DNA of 64,000 nt from Minisyncoccota bacterium (GCA_041688155.1 JBDNIW010000012.1:202-64201); one strand, 5' to 3'; numbered from the stretch's first letter, positions 4,395 through 57,812 are shown. Notes: a model not told the origin generated them from the sequence alone. Numbers and translations are program-made.

Positions 4395-4464
4395 ATAGAT
4401 ACTTTTAAAATAGTAGTCTACTTCATTCAAAAAATATTGTTTGGACAGGAAAAGCGAATTTACT

Positions 4465-4492
4465 AAAAAGCAGGCGAATACGCCTGCTTTTT
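4465..4492. terminator. rho-independent-type hairpin (aaaaagcaggcg-aata-cgcctgcttttt), bidirectional
   Basis: Perfect GC-rich inverted repeat flanked by A and T runs. It separates rplE from the convergent island gene. Confidence 0.7.
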
Positions 4493-4544
4493 AGTTGTAT
4501 AAACAACTTTGAATACAAGCTGTATTATTTCTCGTCCCAGCGTT

Positions 4545-6026
4545 TCAGCGCGATAAAGGTAATTCAAAAATAAGACTGGTATCTTCATTGTAGTTAGCCT
4601 GGGCAATTAAGTTGCCCTCAGCATCAAACACCACTGATGGTCCAGATCTGGTAGCCCGAATGACTACTTTACGATGCTGTGTTGCGTACAGCCTGGCCTT
4701 TGTAGCATTGAAAGTGCTAGGTATTTCGTTTGAAAACATCGCTTCTGACCCTATTGAAAGCAATAGGTCTGATTGGTCCAGTTGCTTGGCTATGTGATCG
4801 GCGTTTGTTATCTCAGAGCAGATTGCATTTCCAATTACGAAATCACCAATTATAACAGGGGCTGTGTCTATGCCTGGCGTCGCATCAATCGGGGTGCTGT
4901 TCAGGCCAATATTTTGTGCCCAAAGAGGCGTATAATCAAAAAAAGGAAATAGATTTGCTTTTTGGTACGTAGCAATAACTTCGCCGTCTTGCCAATATAC
5001 GGTTTCATTAAAAAATTGACCTTCAGTGTACCTCGTATACCAAGTCACAAATATTATTTCAGGTGCCACGTGTTCTCGTAGCCAAGAACTAAATTGTAGG
5101 TGTGTAACTGTGATTATTTGTCGATCGAAAGTAAGGTTATCGTCACTACTTACACCCAATACTCCTGACCAAGGATTGAATGGATATATGATCATGTCCA
5201 ATTTGTGTTCTGACAAGTCAGCTAATTTTGCTTCTAATCTAGGAAAAGCAAACTGTCTGTCAATGACCTTGCCAAAAGCTTCGTTCTGATCAGCAGTTGG
5301 GTCTTGAATGATTGCAATTTTGAGACTCGCATTTTGTAATGGTGACAAACTGGGGCTACTTGAAACTATTGTACCCAACAGCCCAGCCACTACTATTCCA
5401 CATAAAAAAGAAAGAACCTGTTTACCTTTCCAGGGCTGAGTTTGAATTGCTTCGGCCAGAAGTGCATTTATAAAAACAACACCTAATATGTACCATTCAG
5501 CTGCATGTGAAGTGAATTGTGACGGTAGGGCAGAGACAAGTTCAACTGCTACATACACAAAAGAACCGTAGTTGAAGCCATATAAAATATACGAGAGTAA
5601 GACATCAACGCCTGCAAAAGTACAAAAAATACCAACCCTCACCCACCAGATAGATACAGGGAGTAGTTTTGTTTTAAGAAGCCAAATACCAGTACCCCAT
5701 AGTAGAGACATGATTATGGCTAGGAGTACTATGCCGATACCAACTGCATACATGAACCAGGTGAAAAGTACGGCCTCGTTAAGCCAAGAGAATCCGCTCA
5801 TAGTAACGCCTGTAGTGTAGCCAGCAAAAACCACGGCGTACATACCAACTCCAATAAGTATTTTGTACAAAGATGGTGTGTTAAATATATATATGTAGAG
5901 AGGTATAAGTGCAACAAAACCAAGTGCTGTAAAGTTGAAAGGTGGCAGGGAAATGATAGACGCTAAAGCAGCTATGACAGGGAGTGTAAAAGACGAGCGG
6001 TTGTGCATATGGGTTAAAGAGTACAA
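4545..6026 (-). CDS. apolipoprotein N-acyltransferase (Lnt)-like protein: polytopic N-terminal membrane domain plus C-terminal CN-hydrolase domain
   Basis: 493 aa. The N-terminal half is hydrophobic (LPPF..., many TM segments). The C-terminal half has nitrilase/CN-hydrolase features including GNAICSE (catalytic Cys context, as in the ICYE of Lnt). Confidence 0.65.
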   Translation of the reverse strand: MYSLTHMHNRSSFTLPVIAALASIISLPPFNFTALGFVALIPLYIYIFNTPSLYKILIGVGMYAVVFAGYTTGVTMSGFSWLNEAVLFTWFMYAVGIGIVLLAIIMSLLWGTGIWLLKTKLLPVSIWWVRVGIFCTFAGVDVLLSYILYGFNYGSFVYVAVELVSALPSQFTSHAAEWYILGVVFINALLAEAIQTQPWKGKQVLSFLCGIVVAGLLGTIVSSSPSLSPLQNASLKIAIIQDPTADQNEAFGKVIDRQFAFPRLEAKLADLSEHKLDMIIYPFNPWSGVLGVSSDDNLTFDRQIITVTHLQFSSWLREHVAPEIIFVTWYTRYTEGQFFNETVYWQDGEVIATYQKANLFPFFDYTPLWAQNIGLNSTPIDATPGIDTAPVIIGDFVIGNAICSEITNADHIAKQLDQSDLLLSIGSEAMFSNEIPSTFNATKARLYATQHRKVVIRATRSGPSVVFDAEGNLIAQANYNEDTSLIFELPLSR

Positions 6027-7219
6027 ATTAGAGAGCGACGCTTATTGCCAATTACCGATAAAGAACCCACCGGCTGCACGTGTACTGTTGCAATAAGGTC
6101 ATCTTGAATTGCTTTACGCAGCGAATAGTCTTTTGCTAGATACAACTTATTTAGCACATGTTCAGACAACAGGTTTGCACCACCACAGCGCGTGACACTA
6201 TCTTGCAATATTTCCAGTCGAAAATTAATATCATTACCTGTTCCAGACTCAACGTGGAGTTGGTATTCATCGGCTTTGAGGCTTGCTGCAGCGCAGCACT
6301 CGTCAAGGGTGCCTGCTCGTAATTCGAAGCCAGCTACTCTAACCACGTCCACCCCATTTCGTCCGTTGAGTTCAAGTATAGGCATTTGGGTTGACTCATC
6401 TCTACCTGAGATCGAAAAATAATCTCCTGTGCGGTATCTAATGAGTGGAAAAGCGGGATTACTATCGTATGTTATGACGAGTTCATCGTCAATTAACTCT
6501 GTAGCAATAAGTGCACTCTGATTAGGAACAAACCCAGTTTGATTGTTTGTAATCATGTCTTGAGTTGGACCTAGTATAAATTGACCAACCTCTGCTGATG
6601 CATACATGTTTATGATTTTTGCAAAAGGGTAGTGCGATCGAAGTTGCTTCATGATGGTATCATTACTCAACTCGGAAGCTACCACAAGTAGTTTAATGTT
6701 TGCTGTTGAGCATTGTGTTGCAAACCGTAATGCAATAGTTGGTGTAGCAAAAAGAGCATCGCAGTTGAATTTTTTTAGTAGCGCTGCACTGGTGGATAAA
6801 TTACTAATATCACCAAATACTGGCACAAGCCCAGAGTTTGACTGACGACACTGCTGGATGAAAGATGCACTAAAACTTTTGAGTAGTGGTTGATATAAGA
6901 TCAGGGCTCGATTGACAGGTAAATTAAAAGCAGGATTAAAATAGTAATCTTCGACTTGACCAAAAAAGAGTAACAAAGGATTTCCGCTTGAAGTTCCCGA
7001 CGTGTAAGCCGTGAACACAAGTTGATCGGCGGGGACATAACAACGTTCATCCGGTGAAGTCTTAGCAATTTCACTACGGGTCAGGAATGGTAAATCAGCG
7101 AGTGCTGCTATATCAGTGGTTAGATATTTGTTCCTGTAAAAATTGGAATATGTTGTGCTTGAGACTCGCCCAAGCAGAGCTCGCAGCCGTTCAGTATCGC
7201 AGTGCAAAAGCATTGTCAT
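6014..7219 (-). CDS. PaaK-like adenylate-forming enzyme (phenylacetate-CoA ligase / F390-synthetase family)
   Basis: TSGTSSGNP P-loop-like motif and YRTGD adenylation motif (LIRYRTGDYF). 401 aa. It overlaps the Lnt-like gene by 13 nt, so the two are probably co-transcribed. Confidence 0.6.
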   Translation of the reverse strand: MTMLLHCDTERLRALLGRVSSTTYSNFYRNKYLTTDIAALADLPFLTRSEIAKTSPDERCYVPADQLVFTAYTSGTSSGNPLLLFFGQVEDYYFNPAFNLPVNRALILYQPLLKSFSASFIQQCRQSNSGLVPVFGDISNLSTSAALLKKFNCDALFATPTIALRFATQCSTANIKLLVVASELSNDTIMKQLRSHYPFAKIINMYASAEVGQFILGPTQDMITNNQTGFVPNQSALIATELIDDELVITYDSNPAFPLIRYRTGDYFSISGRDESTQMPILELNGRNGVDVVRVAGFELRAGTLDECCAAASLKADEYQLHVESGTGNDINFRLEILQDSVTRCGGANLLSEHVLNKLYLAKDYSLRKAIQDDLIATVHVQPVGSLSVIGNKRRSLICTL

Positions 7220-7258
7220 ATTGTACCAAAATTAGCGTTATTTTGGTACAATAAAGGT

Positions 7259-7789
7259 ATGCAAACACTCTTGTTCGGTATTCTTATAACTGCAATCTGG
7301 ATTTTTATCTGGATTGATTTAGCTAGGTGCTCAGATTCAAACCGCAAGGCACTGCCAGAGAATACGAACATCAAAGTGGTGGGTGTTATTCTTCTGGTTG
7401 CTATTGCTTGTTTTTACACTGCGCTTTACTCAGTTTCATCTTATATATATCTCGCTCCTTTGTACGCACAATTTGTTTGCGTTGGATTACTCTTCTGCGG
7501 AGCCTATCTTGTTGTAGGGGCAAGAAGGCAAATGTCAGCACTCACGGCAAGAGAGGTTTTGTTTTCTGTGAATACAAAATATTCAGTCGGTGGCGTGTTT
7601 CAAAAATTTACCCACCCAATGTTTTTTGGTATCGCTATCATTTTGATTTCTAGCTGGTGTTTACTCCCAAATATTATACCGGGTGTACTTTTATTAATAT
7701 CACTGGCATTACTGTGCGTAAAAGCAGCGCTTGAGACAAGTGAACTTAGGAAACAATTGAATTTACGAGAACCAGGTATTGATCAGTAA
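7259..7789 (+). CDS. ICMT/PEMT-family membrane methyltransferase-like protein
   Basis: Polytopic membrane protein. The C-terminal motif YSVGGVFQKFTHPMFFG resembles the RHPxY.G motif of isoprenylcysteine carboxyl methyltransferases. The track ORF starts at 7202, but the likelier start is MQTLLFG. Confidence 0.5.
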   Translation: MQTLLFGILITAIWIFIWIDLARCSDSNRKALPENTNIKVVGVILLVAIACFYTALYSVSSYIYLAPLYAQFVCVGLLFCGAYLVVGARRQMSALTAREVLFSVNTKYSVGGVFQKFTHPMFFGIAIILISSWCLLPNIIPGVLLLISLALLCVKAALETSELRKQLNLREPGIDQ

Positions 7790-8537
7790 CTAGACGTGAC
7801 TGTTCGTTTGCTTGTAATGTAACAATATCGATTTCATCAAGTAAATCTTGATTAGGAATATTACCCGTAAGCGTTTGATCTAGTAAGTCCATAAGTTTAA
7901 TCACCAATTCAGAGTACTTAAGAGTTTCTGTTTCCAAGATGAATATCTGAGATTTTATCGTGTCAGCAACTATGTCAGAATTTCTGGCATACGTAGCTAG
8001 ATTTGTTGTGGCAAGATTAGTTGACGCTGCATACTCTCTGGACGCACTAACTTCAACTTGTGCATTATTTAATATTGCAAAAAAACCAACAAAATTTCCA
8101 GAAAGTGCTTTCTGCTGTACTAATTCCATTGTTGTCTGTACATCACTGAATAGCTTTTGGTTGAGAAGATCATTTTCTGTTGAGGCTACCTCTAAGAGGT
8201 TGACAAAATCCGGCGTTACCTGACTAGAAGCGGTGATGGTCAGCTGATTCACTGAGGATCGCGTGTTAGTCGTTATTCCTCCTTCTGGTCTGGTTGGAAA
8301 TTGTAGAGCATCTCTATCAGCTTGTGTGGGAACTGAGCCAAAAGTTGGTCTTTCGAGTACCGCATCCTCTAGCAGTTGTTCGAGTTGGGTGATACGGTTC
8401 TCCAGTTTTAAATTTGTTAACTCGACCTGCCCGCGATAAATAAATGTTTGTAGTGTGAACAAGAGTCCACTTATTAATATTCCAGCAGTAAATGCAGCAA
8501 TTATTTTTATCATCATATACTTGTAACTATACATCAT
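7746..8537 (-). CDS. hypothetical membrane-anchored coiled-coil protein
   Basis: N-terminal TM helix followed by a long low-complexity, coiled-coil-like region. No family recognised. Confidence 0.4.
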   Translation of the reverse strand: MMYSYKYMMIKIIAAFTAGILISGLLFTLQTFIYRGQVELTNLKLENRITQLEQLLEDAVLERPTFGSVPTQADRDALQFPTRPEGGITTNTRSSVNQLTITASSQVTPDFVNLLEVASTENDLLNQKLFSDVQTTMELVQQKALSGNFVGFFAILNNAQVEVSASREYAASTNLATTNLATYARNSDIVADTIKSQIFILETETLKYSELVIKLMDLLDQTLTGNIPNQDLLDEIDIVTLQANEQSRLVTDQYLVLVNSIVS

Positions 8538-8694
8538 TTTTTATTCCAGATACTAGTAATTAACAAATTGCCAATAAACACACGATTTAGTCGCGTATTA
8601 ATTTTGTTAATACGGAGATGGTATACTAAATTAGTCGATAGTTCGGTTAAAAGAATTCCAAAGTTTATGCAAAGGCATCTGATATAATTAAAAC

Positions 8695-9315
8695 ATGTTT
8701 TCACAAGTATCTAATAGTTTAAAAAAAAGTGTTGTTGTTGTTGTGATGGTCGCAATGCTTACTTTTTCAGTACCAAAAGAGTCGGAAGCCATTTTGTTGC
8801 TGCTGTTCGCACCGCTTACTATCGGTGCTACAGTTGCTCTCATTATTACTGAGATAGCAATTCTTTGTGCAGTAGGTGTGATTTGTGGAGGTGGGGGTGG
8901 GGGTGGCACGATAGGCGGAGGTCCAGGTAGTGCTTTTGTCGGTGATTCTTGTTCAGCTTCTAATTATTGCGGTCAAACCGGTGCTGGAACAGTTCAAAGT
9001 GATGGTTTTTGTACTGCATTACCGCCGCCAAATAGTGCGTGTACCAATGGATCGTTTCCAGATGATGCGCTAACAATAAACCCAGGTTTGGTAAGGATAG
9101 GTGATGATGTTGTAGTTAGTTATGATGTAGGTGTTTTTAACTATCCACCAAACTGTACTTTGAGTGGACCTGCCCCAATTGGGGTCATGCCTCTTACTAC
9201 ACAAACTGGCAGTTTGACAGTGACTGCATCAGCTGCGCACTTCTTTAGGCTTGAGTGTGGTACAACAAATGCGGAAGCAAAACTAGACTTGGTTGGTATT
9301 ATTCAAGAGATTTAA
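8695..9315 (+). CDS. hypothetical secreted/membrane protein with a Gly7 run and a Cys-rich ectodomain
   Basis: ATG start. N-terminal signal-like segment, then a TM helix, then GGGGGGG, then multiple Cys (CSASNYC, CTALPPPNSAC, ...). Confidence 0.45.
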   Translation: MFSQVSNSLKKSVVVVVMVAMLTFSVPKESEAILLLLFAPLTIGATVALIITEIAILCAVGVICGGGGGGGTIGGGPGSAFVGDSCSASNYCGQTGAGTVQSDGFCTALPPPNSACTNGSFPDDALTINPGLVRIGDDVVVSYDVGVFNYPPNCTLSGPAPIGVMPLTTQTGSLTVTASAAHFFRLECGTTNAEAKLDLVGIIQEI

Positions 9316-9336
9316 AAATTAATAAATCCAGATACA

Positions 9337-9840
9337 ATGAATAATGTCACAAACAATAACGTCTTTGCTTCATTTCGAGACAGCAAGACAAAAACACTTA
9401 AACTACGATTCTTGTTGGTGATTGTGTTTGGGTTCTTCTTCTATAGTGCTGGCATTTATATCTTACTTCGGGGGCTCTCAACGATTATGTTGGCTGAACA
9501 AGTAACCTTATTAAATTTTCTCCACTTATTTGCAACGGCGATACCGCCATTATTGATTGGATTCGGTTTACTAACTCTCAGGCATTGGTCAATATATGTA
9601 CTTGTTGCACACGTCACTCTGGCGGCACTTTCAGTACTTCCTTTATGGTACTTCGGTCTAAGTGAGTTGATTAGTAGTACCTTATCTAACAATTTGGTGA
9701 TTTTAGCTATTTTATTAGTCATGATTTCGCTTTCTTCGGAGTTGTACAAATCACGATACGGCATACTTCTCACAGTACTGTACGTATTGCTGCTGACTGT
9801 GACAAGTGGAACGCAGATATACTATCGATTGCAACTTTAA
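9337..9840 (+). CDS. hypothetical integral membrane protein (about 5 TM)
   Basis: Hydrophobic ORF that follows directly downstream of 8695..9315. Confidence 0.4.
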   Translation: MNNVTNNNVFASFRDSKTKTLKLRFLLVIVFGFFFYSAGIYILLRGLSTIMLAEQVTLLNFLHLFATAIPPLLIGFGLLTLRHWSIYVLVAHVTLAALSVLPLWYFGLSELISSTLSNNLVILAILLVMISLSSELYKSRYGILLTVLYVLLLTVTSGTQIYYRLQL

Positions 9841-9965
9841 AGTAGTTTTACCGGACAGTTTTTACCTTTGAAGCGTATTAAACAAGGTGTTACTTTATAA
9901 TATTGGATTAGTGCTAGTACTGATTTGATGATGTAACATTATATTATGTGTGCTATAAAGACAGA

Positions 9966-11495
9966 ATGAAACAAATAAGTTTAGGCAGTGATTTTACCTT
10001 TCAAGCTTTTATTGAAGCGGTTTTTTCATCTCCGGACTTAGATATTCCTTCGTTGCAGAGTGCCAACAAAACAGTGCAAGCTTCAGCTGAAGAAATTGTA
10101 TATGGCTGGAACACCGGTTTTGGACCGATGGCTCAAATCTATGTTGGTAAGCATGAACGGGTAAATCTTCAATACAATCTCGTCCGTAGTCATGCCTGCG
10201 GGGCAGGAAAACCCCTGTCAGATACATTGTGCCGAGCCATTTTGATTGCTCGACTGCAGACACTCTCCTTAGGATATTCAGCTGTAACAGAGCCTTTGCT
10301 GAGCGCTATGAAAAAGTTGGTAGTAAATCGTATACACCCGGTGGTGTATGAGCACGGTTCTGTTGGGGCGAGCGGAGATTTGGTACAGTTAGCGCACGTT
10401 GGCCTAGGACTCATTGGAGAAGGGGAGGTTTGGTACGAGAACGTTCTGATGCCTGCTGCCAAGGCACTTGAGGCGTGCGGACTAACTCCTTATGAACTTG
10501 GAAACCGTGATGGTTTAGCATTAATCAATGGGACAGCTGCGATGACAGCAATCGCAGCCATAAATATCAATCAAGCAGAGCAACTCTTTGAGCAGGCTAT
10601 CATCAATACGGCTTTAATTTATGATATATGCGAAGTACATCGAGATGTTTTTGATTCGCTTGTGGCACAAGTTCGTCCCCACCCAGGTCAGCGATACGTT
10701 ATTGATCGTTTGAATCATTATCTGCCGACCAGCTCCCATACCAGAGCTACTCCACTAATTAATTCAAAACAGATTAACGATTCAGAAACGTCACTTTTGT
10801 CCCATAATCCACAAGATATATATTCGTTACGTTGCGTTCCTCAAATACTTGGTCCAATACAAGACTCGATTCAGAGGGCTAAACAAACAGTTACAATTGA
10901 GCTCCAAAGTGTTACCGACAACCCAATTTTCAGTGCTAACCGTATTGTACACAATGGTAATTTTCACGGTGATTATGTTTCGTACGAAATGGATTGTTTA
11001 AAAATTGCGATAACGAAGCTGAGTTTATTGCTTGACCGACAAATGCATTTTTTGCTCCACGAACGAATCAACCAAAAATTCCCGCCATTTTTAAATGCCA
11101 ATACTCCAGGTCTAACTCTCGGACTCCAAGGATTACAGTTCGTTGCTACTTCAACAACAGCGGAAAATCAAACGATAAGTAATCCGATGAGTATTCACAG
11201 TATTCCAACCAATGGTGATAATCAAGATGTGGTTAGTATGGGTACCAATAGCGCTCTACTAGCTCACAAAGTTGTGAATAATACTTTTGAAATTTTAGCT
11301 GCCCACACAATTGCAGTAGTTCAGGCTACTAGGTTAAGCGGTAAGGGTGAATCTTTACCAAAAGAGTTATCCATGAAATACCAAATCGTAAACGAATTGA
11401 TTCCAGTGCTAGATAAAGATATGTCTCTACAGCCGGTTTTGGCAAAAGTGGGCCAAGATCTGCAGTCGTATCCACATACCAAAAAAACAAAATAA
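9966..11495 (+). CDS. aromatic amino-acid ammonia-lyase family enzyme (HAL/PAL/TAL; MIO prosthetic group)
   Basis: Ala-Ser-Gly MIO triad in GSVGASGDLVQLAHV and family-typical NTGFG. About 510 aa. No hutU, hutI or hutG neighbours. Confidence 0.8.
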   Translation: MKQISLGSDFTFQAFIEAVFSSPDLDIPSLQSANKTVQASAEEIVYGWNTGFGPMAQIYVGKHERVNLQYNLVRSHACGAGKPLSDTLCRAILIARLQTLSLGYSAVTEPLLSAMKKLVVNRIHPVVYEHGSVGASGDLVQLAHVGLGLIGEGEVWYENVLMPAAKALEACGLTPYELGNRDGLALINGTAAMTAIAAININQAEQLFEQAIINTALIYDICEVHRDVFDSLVAQVRPHPGQRYVIDRLNHYLPTSSHTRATPLINSKQINDSETSLLSHNPQDIYSLRCVPQILGPIQDSIQRAKQTVTIELQSVTDNPIFSANRIVHNGNFHGDYVSYEMDCLKIAITKLSLLLDRQMHFLLHERINQKFPPFLNANTPGLTLGLQGLQFVATSTTAENQTISNPMSIHSIPTNGDNQDVVSMGTNSALLAHKVVNNTFEILAAHTIAVVQATRLSGKGESLPKELSMKYQIVNELIPVLDKDMSLQPVLAKVGQDLQSYPHTKKTK

Positions 11496-11521
11496 TTGTA
11501 CTATATGGTATTATTCATTGT

Positions 11522-11734: not shown

Positions 11735-11751
11735 TTGCGCACAAGTGGGCG

Positions 11752-11827
11752 ATTGAAACTATTGAAACTATTGAAACTATTGAAACTATTGAAACTATTG
11801 AAACTATTGAAACTCAATAGTTTCAAT
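11752..11827. repeat. seven direct copies of ATTGAAACT, then an inverted copy (caatAGTTTCAAT) that can hairpin with the last unit
   Basis: Perfect 9-bp tandem repeat visible in the sequence. It lies inside an ORF that would encode (LKL)n. Confidence 0.9.
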
Positions 11828-11930
11828 CAAATGATAGAGAGAATTAATCTGGCTGATATTTTTACTAAAAATGAACATTGGATCCAATTAATATCAATCG
11901 AGCGACGCGCCGAACAGCTAAGTACATAGA

Positions 11931-16081: not shown

Positions 16082-16119
16082 ATCTCCAAAACTAGGCAGC
16101 TACTTTGTTGCTCTACGAA

Positions 16120-16165
16120 AAAAGACCCTCACTGGACATTCGTCCCGCTCGGGTCTTTTTTCTTG
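16120..16165. terminator. stem-loop aaaaaagaccc...gggtctttttt between convergent secY and the kinase-like gene
   Basis: Inverted repeat GACCC/GGGTC with flanking A6 and T6 runs. Confidence 0.5.
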
Positions 16166-22412: not shown

Positions 22413-22667
22413 ATGCCTGAAACTATCTCATCAACTAAACTACGTGCGAATCTTAAAGATGCATTGCGGCACGTTAAGGAAAGCAAAAAGCCTCTGATTA
22501 TTACCGAGCGTGGTGCCGCCACCTCAGTGATTTTAGACATTGCTGAGTATGAAGATGTTTTGATGTCTCATGACAAACAAGCCGTTGCTGAGCTGCATGA
22601 ATCCATCGCGCAGAAAAAGCGAGGAGAAGTTGTGTCGTTTGAAAGTGTCTTTGCAGATATTTTGTAG
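22413..22667 (+). CDS. type II antitoxin, Phd/YefM family
   Basis: Translation MPETISSTKLRANLKDALRHVKESKKPLIITERGAATSVILDIAEYE... matches the YefM fold. Confidence 0.8.
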   Translation: MPETISSTKLRANLKDALRHVKESKKPLIITERGAATSVILDIAEYEDVLMSHDKQAVAELHESIAQKKRGEVVSFESVFADIL

Positions 22668-22668
22668 T

Positions 22669-22926
22669 ATGGCGTTTACGTTTGTATTTACCCAACTCGC
22701 CAAAAAACAAACCGATAAACTCGACACGCTGACTCGCCGCAGGATTGCCAAAAAATTACAGCAACTAGCTCAGTATGACGACCTGTCACACATTGCAATT
22801 AACTTAGAAGGCCAGTTTGCAGGCAAGCAGCGTATTAGGGTGGGCACGTACCGAATCATATGTGAAATCGAAGTGGATATTGTTACGGTCCTACGAGTGG
22901 AGCATAGGCGGAAGATATATCAGTAA
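22669..22926 (+). CDS. type II toxin, RelE/ParE family
   Basis: Starts 1 nt after the antitoxin stop. RVGTYRIICEIEVDIVTVLRVEHRRKIY matches the RelE/ParE C-terminal consensus. Confidence 0.8.
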   Translation: MAFTFVFTQLAKKQTDKLDTLTRRRIAKKLQQLAQYDDLSHIAINLEGQFAGKQRIRVGTYRIICEIEVDIVTVLRVEHRRKIYQ

Positions 22927-29288: not shown

Positions 29289-29690
29289 GAGATGGCGGGA
29301 GTTGGTCACGAATCACTAAGTATATTGTTTCGCTGCGCTCACAATCTACTAAGTGTTCTCGACCCCGCCTCAACTGTTGTAGAGCCACATGTTTCCGTCT
29401 TTCAACTCCCGATGAAAGCAAAACTGTTTGCTTTCTCCATCTCCACCGAGCAAACAAAAAACGCTCTTGCGAGCGTTAATGTTTCCTGGTGGAGATGGCG
29501 GGAGTTGTCCTGACGGTCACAAATTCGCTTACGCTCATAAGTGCCGCGGGACATGGCTCGACTGTTTTGTGCCTTAGGAAAAGGCACAAAACATATCTCC
29601 GCTGTTCAACTCCCGACGAAAGCAAAACTGTTTGCTTTCTCCATCTCCACCGAGCAAACAAAAAACGCTCTTGCGAGCGTTAATGTTTCC
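29289..29690. repeat. two tandem ~210-bp units downstream of ssrA, each ending in a copy of the tmRNA 3' terminus (GGAGATGGCGGGAGTTG) and each carrying a copy of the ssrA terminator hairpin
   Basis: About 105 bp of each unit are near-identical (1 mismatch) and the rest has diverged. The tmRNA 3'-end fragment occurs 3 times in total (29289, 29481, 29691). Confidence 0.85.
29660..29684 (-). terminator. ssrA terminator (AACGCTC-GCAA-GAGCGTT followed by TTTTTTG on the minus strand)
   Basis: Hairpin plus U-run immediately 3' of the tmRNA CCA end. Confidence 0.75.
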
Positions 29691-30085
29691 TGGTGGAGAT
29701 GGCGGGAGTTGAACCCGCGTCCGAATTAGGGTGCGATTGTGATTCTACAGTGTGTAGGACATTCTTTGGTTTAAAGTCGCTCACTCAAGAATGAACAAAA
29801 CATGAGCGCCTCGAGTTCTTACAATCTTGACCTGCTATATGAACGGTATAGTAGTGTCCAGTCTCGTGTTTATTTTACCCCACTCAGCGTATGAGACGTT
29901 TACTGAGGGAGCATCTCTCCGAGCGAGCGGTTACGCTACAGCGAAGGGAGAGAATCCAAACGCGTTAGCGTAAGGACTTGGTATTGCTTTGTTTGCAAGT
30001 ACAGAGTGGAACCTTTTAACGAATTGATTCCAATTTCGACACTGCACACAACCGACACGACTAACCGTCGATGCCTGGCATCCCC
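29691..30085 (-). ncRNA. ssrA: tmRNA (SsrA), one-piece, 395 nt
   Basis: 5' GGGGAUGCCAGGCAUCGACGG... and 3' ...GGACGCGGGUUCAACUCCCGCCAUCUCCACCA. The tRNA-like acceptor has a G3:U wobble. The internal tag reading frame ends ...ANAFGFSPFAVA-UAA. smpB lies upstream on the same strand. Confidence 0.9.
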
Positions 30086-37920: not shown

Positions 37921-38262
37921 CCTCTGTCTGCCCACTAGAACTTGAAACTTACAGTTTCAGTACAGGTTATCGACAGTTTATTTCGAAAACTCATAAACCT
38001 GTCTGATAACCTTCTCAAATAGTTTCCCAAACTATTTGAGCCTAGAACCACGAAGGTATATAGATATTCAAATTCTGAACATCTATACAGTCCTTCGCTC
38101 CAGATCTCAAATACTCGTAAACTCGTGCTTGAATCTTACTCTAGGACTGTAAGCTTCGCGCTCTACTTGGGCAAGTGAGGAGGTGTAGGAAAGTTTACTT
38201 TCGTATAGCCTCCGAACGCAGGACAAGCAAGCTTTGCTTACCGATTGAGCTACTTGGTTTGT
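37921..38262 (-). pseudogene. tRNA-like gene copy split into four ordered pieces (D-arm, D/anticodon, anticodon/T, T-loop/acceptor) by three 75-95-nt inserts; paralog of the adjacent tRNA
   Basis: Pieces ccaagtagctcaatcgg / tagagcgcgaagctta / tataccttcgtggttctagg / tttcaagttctagtgggcaga match the intact tRNA at 38290-38362. They are colinear and on the same strand. Confidence 0.6.
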
Positions 38263-38289
38263 ATATGGCACAAAGAAACACTTTATTTG

Positions 38290-38362
38290 TCCGCCCGCTA
38301 GGACTTGAACCTAGAACCACGAAGGTATAAGCTTCGCGCTCTACCGATTGAGCTACAGGCGG
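38290..38362 (-). tRNA. tRNA with anticodon loop CUUAUAC (anticodon UAU, Ile-AUA-type); CCA not encoded
   Basis: A cloverleaf folds by hand: acceptor CCGCCUG/CGGGCGG (one G-U), D-arm GCUC/GAGC, anticodon stem CGAAG/CUUCG, T-arm CUAGG-UUCAAGU-CCUAG. Confidence 0.7.
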
Positions 38363-42768: not shown

Positions 42769-42854
42769 GGAGACGTGTCAGAGTGGTCTATCGTGCTTCC
42801 TTGCTAAGGAAGTGGGGTTTACGCCCCCGGAGGTTCGAATCCTCTCGTCTCCGC
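42769..42854 (+). tRNA. tRNA-Ser (anticodon GCU), type II with a long variable arm
   Basis: Anticodon arm CUUCC-UUGCUAA-GGAAG, variable hairpin UGGGG...CCCC, T-loop GGUUCGAAUCC, G73 discriminator. Confidence 0.85.
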
Positions 42855-42898
42855 AAATTAAAAAGACCCAACAGGGTCTTTTTAATTTGCGGAGACGA
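42847..42898. terminator. 52-bp perfect palindrome (24-bp arms) that includes the last 8 nt of the tRNA-Ser and an inverted copy of them
   Basis: cgtctccgcaaattaaaaagaccc-aaca-gggtctttttaatttgcggagacg. Confidence 0.7.
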
Positions 42899-42902
42899 AG
42901 CA

Positions 42903-43190
42903 ACAGTCCGGGGGACTGTTGCGTGAGGATTCGAAAAGCTTTTGCGTCAGATTGGGAGCGGAGCGAACTAATCTGTCCAAAAGGTATACTGCTTGTGTAA
43001 CAAGCGAATCCTCTCGTCAATTACGTCACCCGGTCCGGGGGACTGTTGCGTGAGGATTCGAAAAGCTTTTGCGTCAGATTGGGACCGAAGGGAACCAATC
43101 TGTCCAAAAGGTATACTGCTTGTGTAACCAGAGAATTCTCTCGTCAATTACGTCACCCAGTCCGGGGGACTGTTGCGTGAGGATTCGAAA
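42903..43190. repeat. 2.3 tandem copies of a ~127-bp MITE-like unit. Each has a 5' hairpin (caacagtccgggggactgttg), a conserved core hairpin (CTTTTG.GTCAGATTGG...CCAATCTGTCCAAAAGG) and a 3' copy of the tRNA-Ser 3' end (GAATCCTCTCGTC)
   Basis: Direct repeats are visible. The same core family occurs again at 44470-44760. Confidence 0.85.
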
Positions 43191-43277
43191 ATCTTGCTTT
43201 GTTTAAGATGTGTAGTAGTATTTTTGATGGATGTTGCCTAAATCGCAACACAACCTTCATGGAAGAGGAGATGCACC

Positions 43278-43670
43278 ATGAAAACGCGTACCCACTTTGT
43301 TATTCCAGCTTTGGCTGTCCTGGCACTTTCTGCTTGTGGCGGCGGAGGCGAACCTTTTGATCAATCTCGGTCTGCCTTAGACCAGCCACTGACTGTCGCT
43401 ACCATGGATATTACGTCGGTATCGTCCTCCGGTGAAGAGATGGTAGGTACCATATGGGCCTACATAAACTTTACCAGCGAGTTTCATGTTTCTTCTGACG
43501 CTGGCGTTGTGTGTGAAGGCAACACGAACGCCCATGGCGTTGGCGCGATGAATTGCTCCGACGGTCGTATGTACCCAATCGCGATCGAGGGCTATGGTTC
43601 CTTCAATGGTTCCTATGTTGAAGAATACCCAGGTGAAACAGTTCAAATTACCTGGAACCGACGGACCTGA
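43278..43670 (+). CDS. hypothetical lipoprotein
   Basis: Signal peptide with lipobox LSAC-G. Confidence 0.5.
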   Translation: MKTRTHFVIPALAVLALSACGGGGEPFDQSRSALDQPLTVATMDITSVSSSGEEMVGTIWAYINFTSEFHVSSDAGVVCEGNTNAHGVGAMNCSDGRMYPIAIEGYGSFNGSYVEEYPGETVQITWNRRT

Positions 43671-43750
43671 GTTTGAACGAAAACTGACCACTAACCACTA
43701 ACCACTAGCTATGTGTCTGGCCGTCAGTATAAAAAGTAAGAAAGCCCGCG

Positions 43751-43776
43751 GTGTGGGCTTTTTTTGTGCTCCACTG
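43751..43776 (+). terminator. hairpin aaagcccgcggtgtgggcttttttt
   Basis: GC stem followed by a T7 run after the lipoprotein gene. Confidence 0.65.
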
Positions 43777-44218
43777 AGTAGGTTGATGCAGTAGATGAGA
43801 CATGAAGCTGGTGTAAAAATTTAGGATAAATCTGGGATATAAAAAGTATACTAATACTATCCAGATACTCAGCGAATCTTCTCGTTTTTACCACCAAAAA
43901 ACACTCTTTGCTATACTCAATCTATGAATAAATTCTTTCATCACGAATCAGCTGTAAGGGATGGAAATCTGGCGGTACAGCACGTCGACTCCAGATCTGT
44001 TGTAGCTGCAACTCAGACATTTCTTGCATCATGTGGACTAGCACTTAAGGACTGCGTCTTGATTGAGTGTCAACATGCAGACAATATCACTCACGTAACA
44101 GCCAAAGAGAAATCACGTACTATTCCAACGTAAGCGTTGATTACTAACCAATCTGGTCCCAGTAACAAGTGAATCCTCTCGTCGCAAGTAACACTTTATG
44201 ATAAAGTACTACGCACCA

Positions 44219-44315
44219 CACGGAGAGTTGGCTGAGTGGATAAAATAGTCTGGGAGACTGTTTTATCCGACCAAAGGGAGGCGACGAACTCGTTCGACCC
44301 GAAGCCAACTCTCCG
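44219..44315 (+). pseudogene. degenerate tRNA-like element sharing the first 18 nt of the downstream tRNA, with an 11-bp acceptor-like stem (GGAGAGTTGGC/GCCAACTCTCC)
   Basis: The 5' 18 nt are identical to the tRNA at 44338. The internal arms do not form a canonical cloverleaf. Confidence 0.45.
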
Positions 44316-44337
44316 TGGATGAGTAAAGCGAATAGAT

Positions 44338-44424
44338 GGAGAGTTGGCTGAGTGGTCGAAAGCAGCAGTTTACTAAACTGCCGAGCCTTTGCGGGCTCCA
44401 AGGGTTCGAATCCCTTACTCTCCG
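44338..44424 (+). tRNA. type-II (Ser-like, G73) tRNA with an atypical anticodon loop UUACUAA (anticodon ACU?)
   Basis: Acceptor GGAGAGU/ACUCUCC, 3-bp D-stem, anticodon stem GCAGU/ACUGC, variable hairpin GAGCC/GGCTC, T-loop GGGUUCGAAUCCC. Confidence 0.6.
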
Positions 44425-44432
44425 CAAATACC

Positions 44433-44830
44433 AAAACCTAAAGCATGTCTTTAGGTTTTGTTGTATTTTGCGAGAGAGTAAGGGATTCGAAAAGCTTTTG
44501 AGACAGATTGGGACCGAAGGGAATCAATCTGTCCAAAAGGTGTACTGAACTCGTAGAGTTCGAATCCCTTACTCTCCGCCAAAACAAAAAGTACCCGCAA
44601 GGGTGCATTTTTGTAAGCGGACAGTAAAGTAACAGTTCGGGGAACTGTTACGTGGGATTCGAAAAGCTTTTGAGTCAGATTGGGACCAAAGGGAACCAAT
44701 CTGTCCAAAAGGTATACTGCTCGTGTAACGAGAGAAATTCCCTTACTCTCCGCAAATACCAAAACCTAAAGCATGTCTTTAGGTTTTGTTGTATTTTGTG
44801 CGAGAGTGAGGGGTTGGAAAAGAGCTGGAG
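44433..44830. repeat. nest of tRNA-linked repeats: two MITE-like units with the same core as 42903-43190, bounded by inverted and direct copies of this tRNA's 3' end, plus a duplicated terminator hairpin
   Basis: cgagagagtaagggattcgaa (inverted 3' end) ... core ... gttcgaatcccttactctccgcc (direct 3' end). The second unit ends the same way. The terminator AAAACCTAAAGCATGTCTTTAGGTTTT occurs at 44433 and again at 44761. Confidence 0.8.
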
Positions 44831-47946: not shown

Positions 47947-48167
47947 CTGGAAATAATACTGATGTAGTGATTTTATAAAATCATTTAGACAATCCAACCA
48001 AACAAAAGAATCACCGCTTTATTGTATGCAGTAAAGTGGTGATTCTTTTTTAGTATCCTTGCGCTAACACGAGATACTATGTTCATGTTTATATGAGGTA
48101 CAATTGATGATATGGCACTAGAAGCAACTCACATTCGCTACGCCCCCGATACCAAGACCGTTTTGGT

Positions 48168-57738: not shown

Positions 57739-57748
57739 GATTACATAC

Positions 57749-57792
57749 GCTATCGCGTGTTACGTAGCATGCTACGTAACACGCGATAGCGT
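57749..57792. repeat. 44-bp perfect palindrome (core GTTACGTAGCATGCTACGTAAC); a second copy of the core is at 61813-61840
   Basis: Self-complementary over 22 + 22 nt. Confidence 0.9.
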
Positions 57793-57812
57793 ACAAAAGT
57801 AACGGAAAAAAC

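Follow-up and report, generated by a model that had tools for sequence, protein, structure and literature searches.

In Escherichia coli, the tyrT gene is reportedly followed by 178-bp tRNA-linked tandem repeats, each of which ends in a copy of the tRNA 3' end. Genomic islands and cis-mobilizable elements (CIMEs) integrate in the 3' ends of tRNA and transfer-messenger RNA (tmRNA) genes, integron attC and CTX phage attP(+) are recombination sites made of a folded single strand, and template-switch mutation at quasipalindromes and tandem inversion duplications are known from the work of Ripley, Lovett, and Roth. Here, we analyze a stretch of 64,000 nucleotides (nt) from a Minisyncoccota bacterium (GCA_041688155.1, JBDNIW010000012.1:202-64201), called the window hereafter, in which a gene for a serine tRNA with the anticodon ACU, tRNA-Ser(ACU), lies among small repeats whose ends copy those of the tRNA (positions 44219 to 44830). 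We think that these repeats are non-autonomous, hairpin-forming modules of insertion or recombination that duplicate their target, and that they sit beside a genuine tRNA-Ser(ACU). We give this reading, every mechanistic step of which we infer, a probability of about 45%.

The flanking repeats belong to a family of small non-coding modules that is found across the lineage. The modules form hairpins in one strand and lie beside stable-RNA genes: core A downstream of the tRNA, a related 94-nt module upstream of it, and other core types at tmRNA and elsewhere. Like the tyrT repeats, they are tandem units that follow a tRNA gene and end in copies of its 3' end, but they add an inverted copy, and their covarying three-way-junction core is common to 28 tRNA species, tmRNA, rplK, and many genomes. 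With miniature inverted-repeat transposable elements (MITEs), REP/BIME/REPIN sequences, Correia elements, and Rickettsia palindromic elements they share the character of small, multi-copy, non-coding, non-autonomous hairpins, often at gene 3' ends. Those elements have constant terminal repeats and short, fixed target duplications, whereas the arms found here, of 21 to at least 58 nt, are taken from the local target: they vary by locus and equal the local gene 3' end, and the direct repeat is ~21 nt long in most loci and 28-70 nt long in others. Nor was an autonomous transposase relative found in the 64-kb window or enriched at ~130 loci of the family (whole genomes were not searched). The units resemble attC and attP(+) in their strand-specific fold, in a stem that reproduces the double-stranded target, and possibly in arrays of cassettes in the same orientation. 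They differ from them in that no integrase is adjacent (the neighbors are RecG, malic enzyme, Fur, and ZnuA), in that the identity to the target is ~20 nt long and gene specific, and in that the tip of the core is conserved and its stem variable, where integron sites vary at the tip and have their conserved boxes at the base of the stem. Genomic islands and CIMEs also show tandem accretion and variable cargo, with the tRNA 3' end directly repeated on either side of the insert, a repeat that is present here too. However, the units are only 100-170 nt long, contain no integrase, include an inverted copy, and have one core for 28 tRNA species instead of one target tRNA per family. Finally, quasipalindrome events and tandem inversion duplications produce comparable direct-inverted-direct layouts and can perfect imperfect hairpin arms in a single event, but these are sporadic mutations and not the builders of a conserved, genome-wide family of elements.

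RESULTS

A serine tRNA gene with the anticodon ACU

The gene (44338-44424, + strand) specifies a type II tRNA with G73 and the anticodon loop UUACUAA. ARAGORN calls it as a tRNA-Ser with the anticodon ACT (44338-44425), and its score with the Rfam model RF00005 is 57.9 bits (gathering score, 29), versus 43.8 bits for the nearby tRNA-Ser(GCU). We read the anticodon as ACU because both programs fold the stem GCAGU/ACUGC with the loop UUACUAA; neither gave an alternative fold or a pseudogene score. A preliminary description of this DNA had noted a Ser-like tRNA with a long variable hairpin, G73, and this loop, and all of these are borne out by the two programs and by the sequence. The determinants recognized by E. 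coli SerRS are the long variable arm, G73, G2:C71, A3:U70, and C11:G24. The sequence and the Rfam alignment have each of them, i.e., the determinants expected of a bacterial serine tRNA are present.

The host is a bacterium of the candidate phyla radiation, of the Paceibacteria (Parcubacteria) group, and the malic enzyme flanking the locus has homologs that are 77-99% identical and named Candidatus Paceibacteria, Nomurabacteria, and Kaiserbacteria. Through these homologs we recovered the syntenic loci of relatives; all loci outside the window (given L numbers below) were reached through this one flanking gene or through the core pattern of the repeats. tRNA-Ser(ACU) is found in most of the syntenic loci, usually 0.2-4 kb from tRNA-Ser(GCU), among them that of a deposited genome, Candidatus Nomurabacteria GCA_020632175.1. 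It is 94-98% conserved in the nearest relatives and reaches loci, that of this Nomurabacteria genome included, where the identity of the malic enzyme is only 80-90%. At least eight distinct sequences of the gene occur in related Paceibacteria, and UUACUAA is kept in all of them. The standard serine anticodons (NGA or GCU) are thus absent from all eight variants, in agreement with the earlier remark that ACU is not among them. The stems of the eight variants change in a compensatory manner, in the acceptor (GGAGAGT/ACTCTCC, GGAGGAT/ATCCTCC, GGAAAGT/ACTTTCC) and in the T stem (AAGGG/CCCTT versus GAGGG/CCCTC), and the variable arm is paired as GAGCC/GGCTC, GAGCC/GGTTC, or GAACC/GGTTC. An invariant loop with compensatory changes in the stems is the pattern of a gene selected for tRNA function. 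Of the two possibilities raised before, a drifting paralog of tRNA-Ser(GCU) or a functional oddity, these data favor the second, and the gene is only ~60% similar to the local tRNA-Ser(GCU). A tRNA pseudogene was ruled out by the score above that of the GCU gene, by the conservation, and by the compensatory changes. Judging from these comparisons, we regard tRNA-Ser(ACU) as a genuine serine tRNA that is conserved in this lineage of Paceibacteria.

Codon usage in the window was compared with this anticodon. AGU ranks among the most-used serine codons, and in 47 long open reading frames (ORFs) it is about twice as frequent as AGC (AGT 239, AGC 121), a preference for U that other Y-ending pairs do not show. 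An unmodified A34 is expected to favor U-ending codons; in one study, an engineered tRNA with the anticodon ACU decoded AGU, with AGC and AGA below detection (PMC11066159). If unmodified, the A34 of tRNA-Ser(ACU) would read AGU by Watson-Crick pairing, and tRNA-Ser(GCU) would cover AGC. Mycoplasma tRNA-Thr(AGU) and TadA-edited tRNA-Arg(ACG) are similar in being bacterial elongator tRNAs with a wobble A. tRNA-Ser(ACU) differs in that it coexists with a G34 isoacceptor and serves a split box (AGY Ser/AGR Arg), in which inosine would misread AGA. It does not fit the substrates of TadA (I34) either, since its UUACUAA loop has U at position 36, where these have G. We found no natural tRNA-Ser(ACU) of these bacteria in the literature searched, and regard it as an addition to the few tRNAs with A34, unusual for a split codon box. 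At a locus with the repeat family, L123, we observed tRNA-Arg(GCG) and not the ACG usual in bacteria, which hints that wobble A-to-I editing by TadA may be absent from part of the lineage.

Repeat units with tRNA-derived ends on both sides of the gene

Downstream of the two tRNA-Ser genes, the units consist of an inverted copy of the tRNA 3' end, core A, the hairpin P3, and a direct copy from the T loop, in this order. The inverted copy is often divided in two by a hairpin with a GGG loop, H0. Core A starts with GAAAAG, continues with the helix P2a (CUUUUG/CAAAAG), a small internal loop, P2b, and a tip (e.g., GAGCGAAGCGAA), and ends with GGURUACUG, while P3 is a hairpin of 5-6 bp with a GUA loop. 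The arms follow the local gene, matching the GCU tRNA at its own locus and the ACU tRNA at the other. A covariance model places the two units of the ACU locus at 44479-44573 (101 bits) and 44651-44745 (98 bits), with the same core as at 42923-43017 and 43050-43144, which confirms the earlier claim of two downstream units with the core seen at 42.9 kb. Unit 2a (44474-44578, + strand; inverted repeats I1 and I4) is bounded by GAGAGTAAGGGATTCGAA, the inverted copy (44474-44491), and by TTCGAATCCCTTACTCTCCG, the direct copy (44559-44578), with core A and P3 (44547-44561) between them; it folds at -59.7 kcal/mol (z = -9.6). Unit 2b (44618-44751, + strand) has a degenerate inverted copy I' (44618-44630), H0 (44629-44651), a second part I'' (44654-44663), core A, P3 (44719-44731), and a direct copy (44733-44751). 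The bounding of both units by inverted and direct copies of the tRNA 3' end had been noted before. This holds for 2a; in 2b the inverted copy is shorter and split, and the direct copy has an indel.

Between the tRNA and unit 2a lies the terminator hairpin T2 (44432-44460, + strand). We take it to be the native terminator of tRNA-Ser(ACU) because L191 has T2 without any unit. A terminator-like hairpin follows unit 2a (44591-44606, + strand). The end of the array (44760-44830, + strand; compared with L089 and L221) comprises a second copy of T2 (44760-44788), a degenerate inverted copy (44802-44819) with which a truncated third unit begins at 44802, and the truncated start of another core type (GAAAAGAGCT...). 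The duplication of the terminator hairpin, already noted, belongs to an 84-nt duplication with 94% identity (family D5). A duplicated block or a repeated insertion had been proposed for this arrangement. This proposal holds as far as it goes, and the duplication is real, but it missed a lineage-wide family whose arms are rebuilt for each target.

Upstream of the tRNA, we found a 94-nt three-way-junction element (44222-44315, + strand), whose first 18 nt (44222-44239) are 100% identical to the start of tRNA-Ser(ACU) (44338-44355). The preliminary description had recognized this match, although with a length of 97 nt, and had seen an 11-bp acceptor-like stem and no clean cloverleaf. The stem is there, with 11 bp, or 15 bp when CAC/GTG is included (arms 44219-44233 and 44303-44317), and the element is not called a tRNA by ARAGORN, nor by Rfam even at an E value of up to 10. 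In the consensus fold, the closing stem pairs a direct copy of tRNA nt 1-18 with an inverted copy of nt 1-11, and the other two helices form hairpins, one of 13-15 bp looped by UGGGA and a short one with CUYG. The fold has a z-score of -8.3, and 7 of 32 pairs show compensatory double changes. Chance can be excluded for these structures because core words occur 4 times, against 0.2-0.65 expected, and because of the fold z-scores of the 94-nt element and of unit 2a. The element lies directly 5' of tRNA-Ser(ACU) in L088, L094, L138 (in two tandem copies), L191, and L225, and a variant of it lies upstream of a GCU gene in L221. Outward from the tRNA, the order is X5 (the 5' end), a spacer, the reverse complement (rc) of X5, the core, and a copy of X5, the mirror image of the downstream arrangement. 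The term degenerate tRNA duplicate, used before, is right about the tRNA-derived ends but not about the element as a whole, which is conserved in at least six relatives with compensatory changes: these comparisons show a structure that is being maintained and not a tRNA copy in decay.

Two further observations concern the flanks of the tRNA-Ser genes. Another insert of ~100-200 nt (…ATTCTGAATTAGTG…AATAATTAY) lies upstream of both genes (L095, 7465-7579 and 8485-8599; L088, 7557-7759; L219, upstream of tRNA-Ser(GCU)), with 10-18 nt of the tRNA 5' end duplicated in front of it. In L095, tRNA-Ser(GCU) (7580-7665) has the T-stem variant GAATACTCT and the tRNAs of L096 and L098 have GAATCCTCT, while the downstream direct copy (near 7850) holds the GAATACTCT variant in all three. 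This looks like gene conversion from the downstream copy into the tRNA of L095.

The repeat family at other stable-RNA genes

Searching with the core-A pattern revealed at least 119 metagenome loci, in which the conservation of the core is overstated by the ascertainment through this pattern. Among the matches listed, a tRNA on the same strand ends at most 200 nt upstream of 73 of the 146 units and a tRNA on the opposite strand upstream of none; the remaining units are later members of arrays or lie at contig ends or at rplK sites. The upstream tRNAs represent at least 28 anticodon species. The arms derive from these tRNAs, since in the listed matches the longest exact match between the 3' arm and the cognate tRNA end has a median of 16 nt, versus 6 nt for non-cognate tRNAs. 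The cognate acceptor strand is directly copied in 53 of the 73 units listed (control, 2.9%), and its reverse complement is found on the 5' side in 29 (control, 3.4%), a minimum, since many inverted copies have degenerated slightly. Among the matches listed, the inverted copy always meets the core at T54, in the T loop, and in the layout rc(X)-core-X, X comprises the final ~21 nt or more of the upstream gene, from T54. In 28 of the 40 non-redundant loci listed, the end of the direct repeat falls between -3 and +4 nt of the discriminator (mode, +1); in the others, the repeat extends 26-70 nt into the flank and terminator.

The same core also sits at the rplK stop codon (at least six loci), with arms that are the reverse complement and the direct copy of the last 8-18 nt of this gene, whose end, GGCATCGAAGT, resembles a T loop. 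On one contig, the cores at tRNA-Cys and tRNA-Leu are identical, and across contigs the similarity of cores is 0.70 within a tRNA species and 0.61 between species, which indicates both vertical descent and exchange within genomes. A scan of genome contigs with AAAGCTTTTGNNNCAGATTGG returned 87 matches, all of which we judged to be chance or coding because none had the second half of the core, and a scan of viral contigs gave one true match, on a Paceibacteria-like contig (L219), and two by chance. A loopless rc(X)/X "empty minihelix" was sought in all loci and found in none. A donor-borne inverted arm was considered for L104 and dropped, its I'' being local at 9 of 10 positions. Such repeat elements were not found described in the literature searched. 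Separately, we observed a repeat (…TCCTTTCAGTCATTAGAAATTAGGTCAA) inserted exactly between the inverted copy and core A in L095, L112, L127, L139, L151, L155, L157, and L217; it is a nested element.

Within the window, such elements accompany all four stable-RNA genes. A divergent core-A unit, the fifth of the window, follows tRNA-Ile(UAU) and shares its strand (37932-38026, - strand; covariance model, 55 bits, E = 1.7e-11), with P2a fully swapped to GGTTATC/GATAACC. This tRNA gene (region 37932-38362, - strand) is also followed by fragments of its own (38036-38060, 38150-38166, and 38239-38253). Its UAU anticodon is kept in all relatives, which suggests that AUA is read without lysidine. The tmRNA gene (29691-30085) is followed downstream by an element of the rc(X)-core-X architecture (29450-29690, - strand). 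The 3' end and terminator of the gene recur here as a perfect 58-nt direct repeat (29654-29711 and 29450-29507), which flanks perfect, split inverted copies (29641-29651 and 29604-29615) and core B. This core, of ~100 nt (GTCCCGCGGC...GACCGTCAGGA), is unlike core A and recurs behind tRNAs in L095, L124, and L170.

Structure and covariation of the core

The covariance model was built from 115 units, and covariation was computed on their alignment. Standard pairs fill 87.9% of the pair cells, versus 69.6% after shuffling, and cells with double changes number 623 versus 213. The covariation score is 0.466, against 0.152 for shuffled alignments and at most 0.13 when the partners are slid. P2a seems invariant because the search pattern demanded its sequence, while P3 has 58 different stems and a GTA loop in 106 of the 118 units listed. 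G:T pairs outnumber A:C pairs by 55 to 8 in P2 and by 68 to 0 in P3, an excess from which we conclude that selection acts on the structure formed by the upstream gene's strand, whether in RNA or in single-stranded DNA. The plus strand also folds more stably than the minus strand.

We compared the core with known RNA families. At an E value of up to 10, Rfam 15 gave only matches to tRNA and spurious microRNA-like hairpins, and no family fits the core; its covariance models of ribozymes (hammerhead, hairpin, twister, pistol, and hatchet) and of Y RNA-like RNAs gave no match. When compared by hand, the hammerhead ribozyme was rejected on strand order and sequences. The hairpin ribozyme was also rejected: there is a resemblance to its loop B (GAAA/GUAUA) but no loop A and no covariance-model match. 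A retroviral-type primer-binding site was discarded because the inverted copy complements the gene and its flank, not a mature tRNA ending in CCA.

The composite locus and its variable interval

The region 42769-44830 is a single composite locus that carries the two tRNA-Ser genes, repeat units, and ORFs, and the features listed in the preliminary description were each found at or near the positions it gave. The locus starts with tRNA-Ser(GCU) (42769-42854, + strand), called by ARAGORN and Rfam and 100% identical in relatives. A perfect 25-bp palindrome (42845-42898, + strand; inverted repeat I2) is made of the acceptor 3' strand with its flank, a terminator-like hairpin, and an inverted copy I'. 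It is followed (42900-43195, + strand; families D1-D3) by the two full core-A units of the GCU locus (100.6 and 95 bits in the covariance model), each with an H0 hairpin with a GGG loop before it, and by the truncated start of a third unit (43158-43195, + strand). Between the two tRNA-Ser arrays, an ORF of 130 amino acids (43278-43670, + strand) resembles a lipoprotein, with a signal peptide and a lipobox, and has no match in Pfam; it is probably cargo of the variable interval. A small ORF and then an orphan fragment (44162-44183, + strand; family D6, 95%) come after it. The fragment, also found in L225, consists of the 3' half of P3 and a GCU-type direct copy (GTAACAAGTGAATCCTCTCGTC).

The genes between both tRNA-Ser genes differ among relatives, and in L219 the interval is only ~200 nt. 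L088 and L089 have an identical malic enzyme and differ by a 1.35-kb block of three units and an ORF directly after the tRNA, and L221 and L222 have different multi-gene islands after the same tRNA-Ser(ACU). ORFs lie between copies in L088 and L223, while most units have none. A shared module, AGAGCTAGCACGAGACAC…TCGTGCTAGTTTTGTTATAAT, with a terminator and a -10-like TATAAT box, is located directly 3' of the tRNA-end copy and before the cassette ORFs (L088, 8170-8225; L158; L172; L206; L221, 10750; L223, 9700). We found no integrase, transposase, reverse transcriptase, or HUH enzyme in the 64-kb window. Clustering of the neighboring ORFs showed no enrichment of recombinases or reverse transcriptases near the ~130 loci (whole genomes were not searched), and its top cluster consists of spurious ORFs that read through the repeats. 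A large serine recombinase is encoded ~9 kb upstream in L223 and L224.

Other features of the window are recorded here. A perfect, loopless palindrome of 48 nt (57746-57793) follows an ABC-transporter gene, and hairpins of 15-25 bp lie at other gene ends (48004-48049, 16117-16162, and 4462-4495); long perfect hairpins seem characteristic of this genome. A ribosomal-protein operon (4500-11500; S3, L14, L5 / S8, L6, L18, S5, L15, SecY) is split by a block of low GC content (0.39-0.43) with CN-hydrolase-like, AMP-binding-like, and aromatic amino acid lyase genes, which looks like an inserted island. About seven tandem copies of the 9-mer ATTGAAACT, followed by an inverted copy of it, occupy 11751-11828, and a ParE-type toxin gene lies at 22570-22923. 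The stop codon TGA is rare (4 of the 47 long ORFs).

DISCUSSION

We observed the anatomy and distribution of the repeats, the local origin of their arms, their covariation, and the lack of enzymes nearby. To account for them, we propose that the core is placed next to a T-loop sequence in a way that duplicates the target; staggered nicks followed by gap repair, template switching at replication, and Campbell-type homologous integration are candidates. Duplication of the target would leave the tRNA intact and produce a direct repeat that starts at T54 and has a variable outer end, the direct copy being the duplicated target. A conservative exchange at the T loop would swap in the tRNA 3' end of the element, so that one core family serving 28 tRNA species would destroy tRNAs; for this reason, a target-duplicating process fits better. 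The inverted copies lie in two palindromes, X-terminator-I', centered on the terminator, and I''-core-X, centered on the core. The quasipalindrome literature describes mutation by intrastrand template switching in hairpins. Such quasipalindrome correction could make the inverted copy and keep the arms matched, and it would also yield the mirror arrangement at the 5' side of the tRNA. Unequal recombination between copies of X would expand and contract the arrays, which could explain the truncated end units and the capture of cassettes, and this capture would turn the interval between the tRNA-Ser genes into a variable islet. Any enzyme involved would act in trans.

Several points weigh against this proposal. 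Among the loci there was no insertion step to observe and no clean pair of empty and filled sites in one species to define the junctions. The proposal does not explain how cores reach new tRNA species, and template switching at this scale is a conjecture. Moreover, the maintenance of 100-170-nt elements across genera in very small genomes could equally mean functional selection, and so could the rplK arms, which appear to track the local sequence (six loci, by eye).

The last points lead to an explanation that we regard as less likely but as a serious rival, namely that units and 94-nt element alike function as structured RNAs in the flanks of tRNA and tmRNA genes, spread by duplication and kept by selection. 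They could be modules of processing or stability, switches based on alternative pairing of the inverted copy, with the tRNA 3' end or with the decoy copy of that end, tRNA-like minihelix small RNAs, or a new self-cleaving ribozyme. Strong covariation, conserved nucleotides at the junction, a tolerance of G:U specific to the strand of the gene, and the greater stability of the plus-strand fold are what one would expect of such RNAs. The orientation always follows the upstream gene, including the minus-strand tRNA-Ile and tmRNA, the element is carried by four of four stable-RNA genes of the window, and the family is retained across genera in tiny genomes. However, a canonical terminator, a hairpin plus a T run, separates the tRNA from the unit in most loci (by eye and uncounted; by scan in the window), the copy number differs between near-identical strains, many copies are truncated or degenerate, and orthologous tRNAs lack a unit in relatives (L094 and L095 for ACU). 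No Rfam family matches, and GTA and GAA triloops on stems that are paired all the way are more typical of hairpins in DNA.

We consider it quite improbable that the arrays are scars of site-specific integration, left by a tyrosine or serine recombinase acting in trans through tandem, CIME-like integration into tRNA and tmRNA 3' ends and subsequent deletion down to the att arms, or that they are folded single-strand sites of the integron or CTX type. Direct repeats from the T loop to the tRNA end are a textbook signature of tRNA-targeting islands, tmRNA is targeted as well, cassettes or multi-gene islands lie between or after copies (L088, L223, L221 versus L222), and the serine recombinase of L223 and L224 could be invoked. 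A hairpin stem reproducing the double-stranded target also recalls attP(+). But one core for 28 tRNA species would need 28 matched att sites or kill the tRNAs, no integrase lies in or adjoins any array, the repeat length varies from 21 to at least 58 nt, and a conserved tip with a variable stem is the opposite of attC. The simplest account, a drifting ACU paralog with a dying 94-nt tRNA copy and a purely local tandem duplication, can draw on the local 84-nt duplication (94% identity) and on the rarity of A34 tRNAs outside Arg; it is hardly credible given that tRNA-Ser(ACU) and the 94-nt element are conserved with compensatory changes and that the family occurs at 119 or more other loci beside other genes.

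The broadest claim one could make, which we hold only tentatively and find somewhat doubtful, is that of a new class of elements in bacteria of the candidate phyla radiation, together with a tRNA-Ser(ACU) that is a natural, lineage-wide A34 decoder. The core would anchor at the T loop of any tRNA, of tmRNA, or of a T-loop-like sequence and rebuild both target strands as its own closing stem. Such a class could comprise mobile elements that copy their target by a new insertion mechanism, or a new family of flank RNAs or ribozymes in which the neighboring gene dictates the closing helix. Arms derived from the target in both orientations are not explained by MITEs, att scars, or known RNA motifs, which points to either a new mechanism of insertion or recombination or a new class of flank RNA.

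These results have implications for the biology of the Paceibacteria. The 3' ends of their tRNA and tmRNA genes are organized by an abundant and apparently undescribed element, with no Rfam match and none in the literature searched, whose arrays disrupt assemblies and give rise to gene islets that vary between strains, in organisms not yet grown in pure culture. If tRNA-Ser(ACU) is used, it would be a natural test case for decoding by an unmodified A34 in a split codon box. The same lineage keeps tRNA-Ile(UAU), and the family-bearing relative L123 has tRNA-Arg(GCG). A lineage with minimal genomes would then tune its decoding by an extra gene and not by a modification enzyme.

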